Assembly (NCBI GenBank): GCA_963717525.1
Contig: OY970343.1
Coordinates: forward strand, 160,001 to 224,000
Length of the DNA stretch: 64,000 bases
Reading direction: 5' to 3'
DNA from: an uncultured Methanoregulaceae archaeon
GTDB lineage: Archaea; Halobacteriota; Methanomicrobia; Methanomicrobiales; Methanospirillaceae
Shown here: positions 12,636-17,712 of the stretch, in pieces
How the letters are laid out: every line of letters starts with the position of its first letter
Position numbering within the stretch: the stretch's first letter is position 1
Made by a program: the position numbers and the translations under genes
Notes under the pieces: model-generated
What the model was told of the DNA's origin: nothing
Database searches by the model: none
Seen by the model: the letters and a program-made list of their open reading frames with translations, nothing else

Positions 12636-13557
12636 ATGAAACCACAATGTATTTTCCTGACACTTATGCTGGCTGTGGCAGTCATCATCCTGGCGTGCCC
12701 GGCACAGGCGGATTCAGGGACACCAGGAGTACTCTACCAGAGTAATTTTGTCACCGATCCCCACTGGACGACCAACAACCCCTCGTCAGATTACTGGGAT
12801 CCGACCGAGGAAATGTACCATTTCGCTATTCAGCCCAGTACCGGGAATTATGCGTACTCATCTCCCATCAACTACAACGGCGGATCGTTCACCCTGGAAT
12901 ATGATGTCATCATTGAGCAGATGGATCCTGGCGCAACATTCCGGATGGGCTTTACCAGTGACAATATGGACTTCAACAAAGGCCCCAACGTGATAACTGC
13001 GTTCACTAACTCAAAGTATGGCATGATCATGATCCTTCATACCGTCACCCAGAGTGCCATTCAAACAGAGGTTACCAGTGATACGTCCTCATATGGGGGA
13101 CCGACGGTCACGTACCAGTCTGAATACCACCTATCATGTCAAAGCTGATTACAACAACGATACGAATATCGTCACCGAAACCGTCACCAACAAACAGACC
13201 GGTCAGCTGCTCTGGAGTTACTATACGCCCTCCCCGTCCCCTCTCAAGGGTATGAACCGGGTCTATCTCGGCAATGTCGGCGATTATGGCACGATGGGCA
13301 TATATGCCGTCGGGTGGATCGATAACGTTCAGCTCATGGTACCGGCCTCCGCGACCCCGGCAACCCCGACCCCGCTGCCCATCTCGTCCCAACCTACGTA
13401 TGCCATTAACCAGACAACAATGGTGAGCACGCTTGCGACCTATACTCCCATCCCGACCGTTACCCATAAATCCCCGTTGTCCGAAATGATCGCGTTTGCG
13501 GCGCTTGGGATCATCGGAGTCATTGTTGTCGCGCGTTCTGCGAATAAGAAGAGATGA
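12636..13557 (+). CDS. Secreted, C-terminally anchored surface protein, lectin-like beta domain (apparent +1 frameshift at ~13119)
   Basis: Signal peptide. Two ORFs join as TY-Q-LNTTYHVK. Pro/Thr linker, then KSPL + TM + KKR tail resembling an archaeal sorting signal. Confidence 0.7.
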
Positions 13558-14006
13558 AGATGGTTCATGAGGTGCTCTGGCAACAACCAGCGCCTCCCCC
13601 GTAATTTTCTTTTTCCGTATCATTGGTCCGTATGATCCGGTTTTCCCGGAATAATATTGATGGCAGGATCTGTTACCTGAGCCACCGCATCGGGCAATTT
13701 TATTTTAGTAAAAAGGCGGGCTCGCTGATTGTTCCGTATGGTACCAGAACTTCGTTTTGAGATCCAAAATGCGATGGGGATCCTTAACTCCCTCATCCGG
13801 CACAGACCGGCTCAGGAAAGTTCACTGGTGAGCTTGTGAATCGCGATCGGTGTCTGGTGATTTTTACGGGAACCAAAAAAAAAAGAGTATGGGGTGGTTT
13901 TCCTAATGAAGCCTGGAGGATGTGCATCAGGGTTTTCCCGGCCGGATGGCTGCATGCTTTTTGCGCCTCTTCCGGGCATGTGTGGATATTTCTGCTCAAA
14001 TGCCTG

Positions 14007-14291
14007 TCAGACCGTCCGTTCCGCTCTCCATGGGTGGTTTACCGGATATCCGGAAATGGTTGCAGGTGTTGTGGTCAGTCGTTCGTACGGGTGCGTGGCG
14101 GGGCCGGATGCAAGGCCCGGTTGCGCAAGGTATGCGTCACTGCCAGCCGGGGCCTGCCCTGAGCCTCCGCCGGCAGTTACCTGCCCAACCGGGATCATGT
14201 CACCGGTTTTTGCAGCACCCACAGGATGTACCAGGAGGCCGATCATGAGCAGGAGCATTGCCGTTCCCATCAGGATCTTTCCGGTATCCAT
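14007..14291 (-). CDS. Small putative secreted protein
   Basis: Signal peptide MDTGKILMGTAMLLLMIGLLVHPVGA and GGAGG RBS. Divergent from the FHA/kinase cluster. Confidence 0.55.
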   Translation of the reverse strand: MDTGKILMGTAMLLLMIGLLVHPVGAAKTGDMIPVGQVTAGGGSGQAPAGSDAYLAQPGLASGPATHPYERLTTTPATISGYPVNHPWRAERTV

Positions 14292-14365
14292 GCGAGTGCC
14301 TCCGTTTTGTTCTGTTCATGGGTCGGTGACACGCCGAAATGCTTCCCGGGTATCACCTGATCTCA

Positions 14366-14445
14366 TAGTTACATGCAGAGCCACATATATTGCCCCCATG
14401 ATGACGGTTAGTCAATTGAACCTGCTGGTTACATGGTAGTTACGA
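14366..14445. promoter_or_regulatory. Direct repeats T(A/G)GTTAC, candidate operator
   Basis: TAGTTACATG 14366, TGGTTACATG 14426, TAGTTACGA 14437 in the divergent promoter region. Confidence 0.35.
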
Positions 14446-14534
14446 AAAGTACAGCCCTTACAGAGGCATGTGATTGCATGCAGTACGTGCATAGGGTTAT
14501 AGGACGGCAAAGCGACGTACCTCTCAGGAAGAAT

Positions 14535-15320
14535 ATGGACCCTGCAGACAAATCTCCTACCATTGTCGTTGAGGATACGGAGGATTCTCTTGATGAACTC
14601 TCAGAATACCTGGACGTGCTTTCCAGCAGCGCCCGGCTCAGGATTGTGAAATTCCTCGAAAAGAAGCCCCGCGACGCGCGGGCGATCTCCCACGAGATCG
14701 AGACCAGCTACGAAAATACCAAAAAGCACCTTGACAAGCTCATGAGCATCGGGGTGATAAAAAAAGAGGCGGGCCTCGGGTCCCCCACATCCAAAGGAAT
14801 TCATCCGGTCTGGCAGTATTCCCTTGTCCCGGGGGGCCTGGAATCCATCATACGGAACCTCGGGCTTTTCTCCAACACACGGGTTCAGATCATCGGTGGG
14901 GAGATCTCACGGAGACTGGAATCGGTCAAAAACACGCTCTCCAAGGAAGTCCTCGGGAACGTTCCTGCCGTCATTGTCCTTGGCGGGTATGATGATGGCA
15001 GGACATTCCTGTTGAGGAATGACGGTGTGCGGGTTGGACGCAGCGATCCGGAGCGTCCTGCAGGTGCGACCGGAGACGGGGATGTCGAGATCTCCGGGAC
15101 GTATACTGCGGTAACCCGGATCTCAAAACCACATGGAAAATTTATCCAGAAAAAAGACGGGTGGTATTATGAAGACGCCGGGAGTACTGGCGGATCGGTA
15201 CTGAACAACGCGCGGCTGGAACGCAACGTGCCCACCGCTGTCCACGATGGCGATCTGCTCGAGCTTGCCAAAGGAGCGGGCGGGGCAAGGCTTCTGTTAA
15301 TTATCCCAAAAAACCCATAA
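14535..15320 (+). CDS. ArsR-type winged-HTH / FHA domain fusion regulator
   Basis: N-terminal LDVLSSSARLRIVKFL...SYENTKKHLDKLMSIGVI. C-terminal FHA with VGR, SKPH, EDAGSTGG, HDGDLLEL. Confidence 0.85.
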   Translation: MDPADKSPTIVVEDTEDSLDELSEYLDVLSSSARLRIVKFLEKKPRDARAISHEIETSYENTKKHLDKLMSIGVIKKEAGLGSPTSKGIHPVWQYSLVPGGLESIIRNLGLFSNTRVQIIGGEISRRLESVKNTLSKEVLGNVPAVIVLGGYDDGRTFLLRNDGVRVGRSDPERPAGATGDGDVEISGTYTAVTRISKPHGKFIQKKDGWYYEDAGSTGGSVLNNARLERNVPTAVHDGDLLELAKGAGGARLLLIIPKNP

Positions 15321-15379
15321 CCTCTGTAATCATGGTGAGCGGGCATGCCGGTGCTTCCTTTTGCCCCTTGCCATAACAG

Positions 15380-17500
15380 ATGAATACGAATATGATCCAG
15401 AAAACCGTTACCCCGATCATGATGCGCCCTTCGGCCCTGGCCTTTTTCTGCTGTGCAACCGTGCTGCTCATGAGTGCGGCCTGCGTGCCTCCGGTATCCG
15501 GGGCACAATATGTCGTTGCACCCTCGGGGGGAAGTTTTACCAGCATCCAGAATGCGGTCACGTGGGCCTCCCCTCTTGATACTATTATCGTGTGGAGCGG
15601 GACGTACCCGGGCACGGTCAAAATTGACAAGAAGATCACGCTTCTCGGTCTGGACACCGGCGCGGGGGCGCCGGTCATTGACCCGGGAAATAAGGGGGCA
15701 GCTCTCGAAATTGATGCTGATGGGTGTACAGTCGAGGGTTTTACTATCCAGAACAGTGCGACAGCAAGCGGGATTCTTGTCACTTCTAACGGAAATACGA
15801 TCGAAAATAATACGCTCACCGGCAACGCGGTGGGAATCCAGATCTCTTCTTCAGACAGCAATTCCATTACCGGTAACAGCATCACGGGCAGCAGTCGTGC
15901 AGGCATTGTGCTCAGGAATGCAAAAAATAACCTGATAGAAGGAAACCGGGTGACACAAAACACCCTTGGGATATCGATCGACGACCTCTCTACCGCCAAC
16001 ACGATAACTTACAACACATTCTCCAATACCGAGAACGTCCTTTCGCGGGGTTCCGATCAGCAATGGGAATCGCCGTCTTTTCTCTCCTATGTCTATATGG
16101 GGCGGTCCTTTACCGGAAGGCTGGGAAATTACTGGAGCGATTACCGGGGCAGTGACCAGAACTCCGATGGTATCGGGGATACACCATATGTGGTGAGATC
16201 AGGGTTAATCCCCACGTCTGGAACTGCGGTCATCCCGAATGAGGTCGACCCTGCACCCCTGATGGATCCCATTGATTATTATCTGCAGATCCGGCCTGCG
16301 GTGTCAGGAACAGGCACAACACCTGTCCCGACCCCTCTCCCGGTGACAGCCCCGACCGGGCAGGGAACGTCACCTGCGGGTGCCGGATCCCCGGCCACAG
16401 GCGAGCGGGGACTGGTCACGCTTGTGGTGCTGATCCTGCTGATCTGTATCATCGGTGCTGGTGGGGTGCTCTTTATCCGGTCCCGTACAAACCGCGAGGG
16501 GCAGGTTCCTGACGCTCTGTCAGCGTCCGGAGATACGAACCCTCGTCCGGTGCCGGACCTGCGTGAAAAAGAAAAATCGCCGGGGAATAATCAGCAGTCT
16601 CAGGAGATCAGTGCAGAGGTAACCTCCCCCACCCTTGAGACCGAAATAGTTCCCGCACCAAGGGAAACTCCGCCGGCAGCAGGGCCCAAATGTTATTTTC
16701 CTCCCGAGCTCGAGAGCCGGTACGGGGATATCAGGCATATCGGCCGCGGGGGGGTGGCGCATGTCTTTGCCGCACACCGCAAATCGGATAACCTGCTGGT
16801 CGCCGTCAAGATCCCCATCAGTTTTGACGAAGTGACCGGCAAATGTTTCTTAAACGAGATCGCCGCATGGCAGACGCTCCGGCACAAAAATATCGTCGAG
16901 GTGCTCGAGGTTAACATCCTCCCCGTTCCCTATGTCGAGATGGAGTACGTGCCTGGATCGCTTGAATCGGTGGCAAAACCCCTGCCGGTTTGGAAGGCTG
17001 TGCACCTGGTGCACGGTATCGCAGACGGCCTCGCGTACGCCCATGCCCATGGCATCATCCACCGCGACATCAAGCCGCACAACATCCTCGTAACCGGTGA
17101 TTTTGTCCCGAAGATTACGGACTGGGGCATGAGCAAGGTTATCGCCACCACGATGGAGAAATCAAGCGTCGCCGGGTTTTCCCTCTCGTATGCCGCACCG
17201 GAGCAGGTGTCACCGGCCGAGTTCGGGAGGACGGACGTCCGTACCGATATCTACCAGCTGGGGGCACTCTTTTACGAACTGGTCACCGGATCGATACCGT
17301 TTGGAGGGGAGAGTATTGTGGAGGTCGGAAATGCGATTGTCAGGGAAGAACCGATACCCCCGACCGAATATAATCCCGATGCGGAGGCCGTTGAGAAGAT
17401 CATCCTGAAATGCCTCGCCAAGAATCCCGCGGACCGATACCAGACTGCCGGCGAGCTGCTGGATGCGCTGTCCCGCTATCTCGATGAGGATGATGAGTAA
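15380..17500 (+). CDS. Single-pass receptor Hanks-type Ser/Thr kinase with extracellular NosD-like beta-helix
   Basis: Signal peptide, SIQNAV..GTYPG, Asn-ladder repeats, GNYWSDY..DGIGDTPY, TM at ~16409-16477. Kinase motifs GRGGVAHV, VAVK, HRDIKPHN, DWG, YAAPEQ, DIYQLG. True start may be a downstream Met. Confidence 0.92.
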   Translation: MNTNMIQKTVTPIMMRPSALAFFCCATVLLMSAACVPPVSGAQYVVAPSGGSFTSIQNAVTWASPLDTIIVWSGTYPGTVKIDKKITLLGLDTGAGAPVIDPGNKGAALEIDADGCTVEGFTIQNSATASGILVTSNGNTIENNTLTGNAVGIQISSSDSNSITGNSITGSSRAGIVLRNAKNNLIEGNRVTQNTLGISIDDLSTANTITYNTFSNTENVLSRGSDQQWESPSFLSYVYMGRSFTGRLGNYWSDYRGSDQNSDGIGDTPYVVRSGLIPTSGTAVIPNEVDPAPLMDPIDYYLQIRPAVSGTGTTPVPTPLPVTAPTGQGTSPAGAGSPATGERGLVTLVVLILLICIIGAGGVLFIRSRTNREGQVPDALSASGDTNPRPVPDLREKEKSPGNNQQSQEISAEVTSPTLETEIVPAPRETPPAAGPKCYFPPELESRYGDIRHIGRGGVAHVFAAHRKSDNLLVAVKIPISFDEVTGKCFLNEIAAWQTLRHKNIVEVLEVNILPVPYVEMEYVPGSLESVAKPLPVWKAVHLVHGIADGLAYAHAHGIIHRDIKPHNILVTGDFVPKITDWGMSKVIATTMEKSSVAGFSLSYAAPEQVSPAEFGRTDVRTDIYQLGALFYELVTGSIPFGGESIVEVGNAIVREEPIPPTEYNPDAEAVEKIILKCLAKNPADRYQTAGELLDALSRYLDEDDE

Positions 17501-17520
17501 GGAATTACGGTTGGTTTAGT

Positions 17521-17712
17521 ATGGCGGATAAACCAAAAACCTATGAACCTGCGACCTGCGGTCATTGCGGCGGAATCGGGTGCACCTACTGCAACAAAAC
17601 GGGAACCGTTCTCGTGCAGTCGCCCAAAAAGGCCTGTCCTGAGTGCGAAGGGGTCGGCTGTCTCTACTGCGGGTTTACCGGGTGGTCACACCCGAAAGGC
17701 AAGTACGACTAA
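17521..17712 (+). CDS. Small DnaJ-type zinc-finger protein (2x CxxCxGxGCxxC)
   Basis: CGHCGGIGCTYCNKTG and CPECEGVGCLYCGFTG. Starts 20 bp after the kinase stop. Confidence 0.75.
   Translation: MADKPKTYEPATCGHCGGIGCTYCNKTGTVLVQSPKKACPECEGVGCLYCGFTGWSHPKGKYD

Follow-up and report, generated by a model that had tools for sequence, protein, structure and literature searches.

How a signal from outside the cell reaches promoters without histidine kinases is largely an open question in archaea, and it is the question raised by the locus described here. The locus lies in a stretch of 64,000 nucleotides from an uncultured Methanoregulaceae archaeon (GenBank assembly GCA_963717525.1, contig OY970343.1, positions 160,001 to 224,000), hereafter called the window, whose numbering is used throughout. 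The plus strand carries three tightly spaced open reading frames (ORFs), 14433-15320, 15380-17500 and 17521-17712, separated by 59 and 20 bp, and a small gene of 94 codons diverges from them upstream (14291-14007, minus strand), as given in the preliminary description. That description took the three genes for one signalling circuit, made of a regulator with a winged helix-turn-helix (wHTH) and an FHA domain, a receptor Ser/Thr kinase, and a zinc finger. The circuit of the first two is strongly supported by conserved linkage, matching trees, joint loss, PP2C phosphatase neighbours and a candidate operator, while the zinc finger did not hold up as a member. Judged by comparison of sequences, regulator and kinase constitute a two-gene signalling module of the Methanomicrobiales, and that the two proteins work as a functional pair is highly probable.

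The reading that we favour is a relay. An outside signal would cause the membrane kinase to autophosphorylate, the FHA domain of the regulator would dock on a juxtamembrane phosphothreonine of the kinase, the docked kinase would phosphorylate the tail of the regulator, and the phosphorylated regulator would activate promoters in which a TATA box is accompanied by a pair of AACC-N4-GGTT palindromes spaced by 21 bp. In one family, f4, the same promoter signature stands ahead of a phosphatase-regulator-kinase operon, which would close a feedback loop (f1-f6 are family labels assigned by the analysis tool; G and L numbers label genomes and loci, respectively). Docking followed by tail phosphorylation is proposed by analogy with PknH-EmbR (PMC4601284) and with tail-FHA switches. 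Taken as a whole, from kinase to signature promoters, we consider the relay to have slightly better than even chances.

Regulator and membrane kinase

The regulator most likely starts at the ATG at 14535 and comprises 261 amino acids (14535-15320, plus strand), and not at 14433, from which the frame is open, because its relatives have 260-262 amino acids. Pfam, alignment and a structure model agree with an ArsR-like winged helix fused to an FHA domain. The FHA domain scored 31.1 bits against a cut-off of 20.7 (PF00498) and is the sole FHA match in the genome, whilst the winged helix stayed just below the cut-off for HTH_5 (PF01022, 21.1 against 22 bits) and well below that for NF033788 (23.4 against 55). 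The wHTH is not stand-alone, and the resemblance to ArsR/SmtB metalloregulators is one of fold only. The model consists of a disordered tail (residues 1-14), the winged helix, two linker helices and the FHA sandwich. Foldseek matched the latter to GarA, OdhI and FhaA at TM-scores by target of about 0.8, and EmbR was also matched.

The kinase of 706 amino acids (15380-17500, plus strand) was assigned by Pfam, structure model and residue alignment. It contains NosD/beta-helix and Pkinase matches (PF00069, 138 bits), and its own sequence and those of close relatives add a signal peptide, a Pro/Thr linker and one transmembrane segment, followed by a Thr-rich juxtamembrane segment and an RD kinase domain. 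The Hanks kinase appears intact by sequence, with the Gly loop, beta3 Lys, alphaC Glu, HRD-x-K-x-x-N, APE, subdomain IX Asp and subdomain XI Arg all present, though it carries DWG in place of DFG and Ser in place of the P+1-loop Thr. The replacement of DFG by DWG is found in all partner kinases. The catalytic Lys, Asp and Asn, the DWG and the APE Glu were invariant in 71 of 71 of them, with exceptions at the first Gly (57), the alphaC Glu (68, with Asp in 3) and the HRD Arg (64).

All partner kinases are membrane-anchored, and their extracellular part varies, with at least five sensor architectures, including NosD with one transmembrane segment, NosD or PEGA with four to five, transmembrane segments only, and a short ectodomain. 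The ectodomain of the window kinase was modelled as a right-handed beta-helix, from which a glycan ligand had been suggested. We found no support for that, since the fold matches are generic (pectin methylesterases, Pel9A and NosD, at TM-scores by query of 0.45 or less), the beta-helix is only one of the sensor types and many partner kinases lack it.

The evidence that carries the pair comes from gene neighbourhoods. The closest homologs belong to Methanoregula and Methanoregulaceae, in the order Methanomicrobiales. The regulator was present in 51 of 61 related genomes, in up to four copies each, and from about 75 matched places the 60 on longer contigs were examined. A Hanks kinase followed directly 3' of the regulator on the same strand in all 60 loci (two of them frameshifted), and in 20 further loci a kinase came next for 20 of 21 regulator genes, and a PP2C phosphatase for the remaining one. 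Trees of 71 pairs (FastTree, midpoint root) were largely congruent: of 41 supported regulator splits, 33 recurred among the kinases, and of 43 supported kinase splits, 37 recurred among the regulators (Spearman 0.73), which shows co-inheritance and not interaction, because linked genes share their history. Three Methanoregula genomes (G006, G023 and G035) lack both genes, and there the upstream secreted-protein gene lies about 60 bp from the zinc-finger gene; these absences may represent one single loss. PP2C genes directly adjoin 11 loci and are 2-4 kb off in two more.

Within the order, 41 of 53 genomes have the full-length regulator; none of the 247 other genomes drawn from the phylum does, and these gave weak HTH matches only. 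Diverged homologs occur in Bathyarchaeota and Methanobrevibacter, and in two metagenome loci with a diverged regulator type about 2 kb separate regulator and kinase, one of these loci also having a PP2C. Long open frames in G183 and G131, suspected to be regulator-kinase fusions, turned out not to be fusions. At one locus (L173:5001-11485) a regulator is paired with a PP2C and, 3 kb on, a second regulator with a diverged HTH is paired with a kinase. The wHTH-FHA homolog from Bathyarchaeota (protein P0147) is fused to a C-terminal domain labelled DUF4263 by its source.

Related kinases of a separate class have no regulator nearby. These Methanomicrobiales Hanks kinases (L195-L204, 669-1930 amino acids) are often clustered and beside a PP2C, and combine beta-propeller, PEGA, Kelch, NHL, TPR or Zn-ribbon inputs with a C-terminal extension of about 90 amino acids. 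There are two full-length Hanks kinase matches in the source genome; the second (L205:3619-7058; genome 1015618-1019057) has an N-terminal kinase domain, a C-terminal transmembrane segment and a PP2C gene 1.5 kb away. Another kinase without a regulator nearby (L191:5360-7429) joins four transmembrane segments and a Hanks domain to a C-terminal HATPase_c, the ATPase domain of histidine kinase type.

Promoter signature, targets and divergent transcript

An unbiased dyad search in 161 upstream regions, mostly from Methanoregula, ranked AACC-N4-GGTT and GGTT-N9-AACC at the top, and once the regions were anchored, two divergent TATA boxes were seen to enclose the palindromes, which recur with a period of 21 bp. 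The candidate operator pair of the window is strand-neutral and occupies 14395-14433, with a degenerate palindrome at 14395-14412 and a full AACC-N4-GGTT palindrome at 14416-14433. A TATA-like box of the divergent promoter (14384-14391, minus strand) directly adjoins it. With the pattern TATA-N6-AAT-N6-GGTT-N9-AACY-N4-RGTT, the source genome gave 7 matches at up to two mismatches (0, 0 and 0 in shuffles) and 9 at up to three (0, 1 and 0). Near a lipoprotein gene (L279, genome 2133202-2133240) stand two further strong palindromes with the 21-bp spacing, but the arrangement with TATA that the pattern demands is absent there.

The signature occurred in 42 of 51 regulator-positive genomes against 1 of 10 regulator-negative ones, that one being 64% complete, and the reversed control gave 0. 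A partly overlapping draw of genomes gave 24 of 41 and 0 of 12, respectively. Four Methanoregula genomes without the regulator, 87-98% complete, had no signature site, and in 26 of 33 regulator-positive Methanoregula the signature was also found away from the module locus. Outside the order it was at background (11 of 247, against 16 of 247 for the reversed control). Among the matches outside Methanoregula, 14 of 33 were within 1.3 kb of a module, and a matrix trained on Methanoregula scored at least 17 at 7 of 8 f3 and 11 of 15 f4 module loci, compared with 1 of 15 orphan-kinase loci and 0 of 9 zinc-finger loci. The signature thus stands beside modules of two families outside its derivation. 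The recognition helix of the regulator is nearly invariant; for a paralog clade with an E-to-A change in this helix, AAC-N6-GTT was present in none of 10 loci and variants in 1-3. We consider it very probable from these distributions that the signature is the site of this regulator.

The ten best sites in the genome indicate what the output may be. Behind six of them lie genes for proteins that are secreted or anchored in the membrane (94, 258, 211, 329, 190 and 47 amino acids), behind two more lie short cytosolic ORFs, and the remaining two sites are ambiguous. Module promoters of f3 and f4 precede secreted proteins of 62-143 amino acids, often rich in Cys, Gly or His, a lipoprotein of about 125 amino acids, and apparently ORF-less transcripts; in three f4 loci the signature precedes the PP2C gene that heads the module. 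The small secreted targets matched no Pfam family above cut-off, and 5 of 28 scanned targets had a match, namely DUF4405, DUF11, CAP, HEAT and a marginal DsbC_N. Spy/CpxP/ZraP-like proteins were considered and had no support from Pfam or the Atlas. This output, a structured RNA and a loosely defined group of lipoproteins, secreted proteins and surface proteins, points tentatively to a response to cell-envelope or surface conditions, a role to which we give a little less than even chances.

The ORF-less signature promoters of f4 share no RNA and have no Rfam match. Three tandem signature promoters at L252:1033-1725, 320-370 bp apart, have near-identical 5' ends, no clear ORF and no Rfam match, and are possibly a small-RNA array. 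Related short cytosolic ORFs of 48-93 amino acids recur behind signature promoters (L274:443-721, L275:537-680, L265:1076-1219), and an ORF of about 58 amino acids is divergent to paralog modules (L077, L078, L190). Such short ORFs may encode feedback inhibitors.

The divergent small gene of the window is likely part of the output. Its predicted transcript of about 490 nt (13874-14360, minus strand) was delimited by the TATA box at the start and a poly-U run at the end. In Methanoregula this transcript begins with a conserved hairpin (14325-14357 here, minus strand), of no unusual stability (z -1.34), which is retained in loci without the ORF. The ORF encodes a small secreted protein of 94 amino acids (14007-14291, minus strand) and is present in about 51 Methanoregula loci; about 20 loci lack it and retain a predicted transcript of about 150 nt. 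Its signal peptide is conserved and coding-constrained (third-position bias 441:189:119) and its mature part hypervariable, a difference that the ungapped comparison inflates. A middle element (14080-14099, minus strand) is conserved at the nucleotide level irrespective of frame, and lies inside the ORF here and 3' of the stop codon in other loci. Towards the 3' end a conserved C-rich element with a CUCCAG core (13912-13922, minus strand), resembling an anti-Shine-Dalgarno sequence, precedes the poly-U run.

A single pattern (CUCCAG core, hairpin, AUCAUAC, poly-U) recovered the 3' element in 53 of 73 loci, and the 15 loci listed for the window clade have a hairpin-less form. The hairpin covaries, with double changes at all 6 pairs and a score of 0.51 against 0.26 for shuffled and at most 0.26 for slid alignments, measured on 33 of 46 sequences with the structure chosen from the same alignment. 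The strict element occurs in 14 of 61 genomes, once in each and nowhere but at this locus. Rfam 15 gave no match to the divergent RNA at gathering score, with one chance-level hit (20.5 bits against 120.4). These features suggest an RNA of dual function that carries an anti-Shine-Dalgarno motif and recalls RNAIII.

The resemblance extends to the layout. As in the agr system of Staphylococcus aureus (AgrC/AgrA, P2/P3, RNAIII), divergent promoters drive a predicted RNA of about 500 nt with a small secreted ORF, and the C-rich motifs of RNAIII are likewise complementary to Shine-Dalgarno sequences (PMC3861533). An agr-like peptide circuit was weighed, in which the hypervariable secreted product would be the ligand of the kinase ectodomain, with strain-specific positive feedback, and the C-rich 3' RNA would block ribosome-binding sites. 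It agrees with the small secreted, often Cys-rich ORFs that stand behind signature promoters by modules in Methanoregula, f3 and f4, with a mature part that changes under a constrained signal peptide, and with the covarying hairpin and its conserved CUCC core. However, about 20 loci retain receptor, operators and RNA without such an ORF, the sole conserved peptide motif is an RNA-level element, the mature part may simply be unconstrained, and the 3' element pairs no better with the ribosome-binding site of its own regulator (-9.8 kcal/mol) than with those of other loci (-9.7), i.e., without specificity. No processing or export genes were seen nearby, and domain scans of the locus proteins returned no histidine kinase, LytTR regulator or AgrB/AgrD. 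Unlike agr, which uses His-Asp chemistry, the locus has no autoinducer maturation gene and there is no homology between the two. A complex prediction of ectodomain and small secreted protein scored 0.00, which carries no weight either way. We regard such a circuit as unlikely and prefer the relay, in which peptide and RNA would be output.

The direction of control has also to be weighed. The regulator has an ArsR-like fold, and this class is known mostly as repressors; a repressor or roadblock at the same sites, released by phosphorylation, e.g., of a wing Thr conserved in 58 of 61 sequences, would agree with a degenerate site that abuts the position of the B recognition element (BRE). Module clades without adjacent sites could mean, moreover, that the signature belongs to another, co-distributed factor. 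Activators, on the other hand, would agree with the constant distance at which the sites stand upstream of TATA in different families, and the sites track the presence of the regulator and adjoin its genes in unrelated contexts, so that together these two possibilities seem less likely still than the peptide circuit. Archaeal activators bind upstream of BRE (PMC5512572), and since the candidate sites are upstream of BRE/TATA, we think that the regulator of the proposed relay probably activates.

FHA pocket and juxtamembrane motif

Pocket residues of the FHA domain were placed by alignment to GarA and judged against PMC3146460 and PMC10470591. The Arg and His are invariant (61 of 61 each), Ser/Thr is present in 58 of 61, and an extra invariant Arg lies in the same loop. 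Where the beta6-beta7 loop canonically has Asn, 58 of 61 sequences have Gly and 2 have Asn, which several diverged homologs also have. With Arg, Ser/Thr and His retained and Gly for Asn, binding of phosphothreonine is plausible, not given.

On the kinase side, the juxtamembrane motif T-[ILVM]-[ILVMF] was present in 49 of 72 partner kinases, against a shuffle mean of 6.8 and with none of 1000 shuffles as high; the motif was chosen after viewing the sequences, and kin among the 72 are not independent. The Ser version was not enriched (8 of 72, shuffle mean 7.4), and none of 15 orphan kinases without a regulator nearby had the Thr motif. Docking of the FHA domain on this Thr-hydrophobic-hydrophobic motif is predicted as somewhat more probable than not. 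In the disordered tail of the regulator (predicted local distance difference test below 50), Thr9 is present in 60 of 61 rows, one row being a fragment, and is followed by hydrophobic residues. By analogy with GarA/OdhI, Thr9 could be a switch that binds its own FHA domain, with Thr85 of the wing as the alternative; the chances for Thr9 are about even.

Several observations weigh against the relay. The strict juxtamembrane motif was not enriched in the clade of the window itself (4 of 13, shuffle mean 2.0), whose kinase has T-x-hydrophobic-hydrophobic. Nine of the 51 regulator-positive genomes had no signature match, and the regulator-negative genomes may represent few independent losses. Strong matrix sites were absent beside f5 (0 of 5) and f2 (0 of 6) modules despite the shared recognition helix, and found at 1 of 12 loci of other f1 genera and 0 of 13 Methanoregula paralog loci; the near-invariant helix fits one shared motif, yet the f5 and f2 blanks remain unexplained. 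The targets match no known stress family. The kinase is convergent in three metagenome loci of one clade, and four short metagenome contigs show the regulator beside a non-kinase gene. Finally, the pocket Asn that is mostly replaced is one of three residues named for phosphothreonine recognition in PMC10470591.

The last point leads to the possibility that the pair is functional and the FHA domain serves for phospho-independent docking or oligomerisation, and does not read phosphothreonine. The FHA domain of GarA acts in such a way towards its enzyme targets. The Gly for Asn, a one-residue insertion ahead of the S-x-x-H motif, and 11 of 70 partner-kinase activation loops without Thr fit this possibility, and the conserved remainder of the pocket with its extra Arg, the confinement of a Thr-specific motif to partner kinases, and the linkage to PP2C do not; we find it quite improbable next to the relay with a phosphothreonine-reading FHA domain. 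That the two genes are passive neighbours without shared function, as the synteny of the whole region within Methanoregula, housekeeping genes included, might imply, is scarcely credible, since the two genes stay together among paralogs, in five families and in unrelated surroundings, and disappear jointly.

Neighbouring genes and known systems

The third gene of the row encodes a double CxxCxGxGC zinc finger of 63 amino acids (17521-17712, plus strand). In a Pfam scan neither this ORF nor that of 94 amino acids had a match, and look-alikes in the Atlas were unnamed or DnaJ-type fingers, under 0.9. The zinc-finger gene is single-copy, abuts the kinase only in Methanoregula, persists in five genomes without the regulator, and was not found in four f4 genomes that carry 2-4 modules, which rules it out as a third component; it is a bystander outside the module. 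Elsewhere in the window (12636-13557), two overlapping ORFs correspond to one secreted protein of about 305 amino acids in relatives, and the frameshift between them is an assembly error, because contigs of three sequencing runs lack base 13119.

Small secreted-protein genes divergent from a regulator-kinase operon are known from the envelope systems CpxP-CpxRA and ZraP-ZraSR. They differ from the module in their chemistry, and the targets here have no Pfam match to such proteins. The closest parallel in wiring is PknH-EmbR of Mycobacterium tuberculosis, a receptor Ser/Thr kinase with a DNA-binding protein that carries a C-terminal FHA domain, in which FHA is needed for phosphorylation, phosphorylation raises promoter binding and a phosphatase reverses it (PMC4601284). 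EmbR matches the window regulator only through its FHA domain. It is a Streptomyces antibiotic regulatory protein (SARP) with OmpR-type DNA-binding and BTA domains, for neither of which the 261-residue regulator has a Pfam match; here, an ArsR-like wHTH and a short helical linker join a non-canonical FHA domain. Unlike in PknH-EmbR, regulator and kinase here are duplicated together and their sensors exchanged, in the manner of two-component systems. By analogy, it would work like PknH-EmbR while standing outside that family.

Within archaea, ArnA/ArnB of Sulfolobales with the kinases ArnC/ArnD, and ST0829, likewise link Ser/Thr signalling to transcription through an FHA protein (PMC6509490, PMC10470591). 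ArnA has a Zn ribbon fused to FHA, a vWA partner and no wHTH, whereas here the zinc finger is separate and unlinked and the FHA protein is paired with a transmembrane kinase encoded next to it. The separate zinc-finger gene does not travel with the module, which speaks against membership in the ArnA family; vWA neighbours were not specifically searched for. A conserved Thr in a disordered N-terminal tail is shared with the tail-FHA switches GarA/OdhI and DgcB, the first two being the best fold matches of the FHA domain. Those proteins regulate enzymes and not DNA, and the tail binding is here a prediction.

The remark of the preliminary description that such a circuit was uncharacterised in methanogens apparently stands: no description of the module was found in the open-access literature, though supplement tables of comparative-genomics studies may list it. 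A 2016 review names a single study of Ser/Thr/Tyr phosphorylation in methanogens (PMC5007285), and by the count of a 2019 paper no more than two FHA proteins of archaea had been studied, each of them from Thermoprotei (PMC6509490). New here, as predictions from sequence, are the paired-palindrome promoter signature, the regulon and the candidate RNA output. They amount to a predicted dedicated relay from a membrane Ser/Thr kinase to a transcription factor in an abundant order of methanogens. For its study there are strains that have naturally lost the pair, a list of targets, a candidate operator, possible phosphorylation sites on kinase and regulator alike, and what may be a new archaeal regulatory RNA. 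A wider view, which we hold to be possible and on the whole doubtful, is that the Methanomicrobiales have a two-component-like family built from eukaryote-type parts, i.e., kinases with exchangeable sensors, activators wired through phosphothreonine and FHA, and reset by PP2C, with an agr-like peptide/RNA feedback output in Methanoregula. If true, this would be the first peptide-receptor-kinase communication system in archaea.

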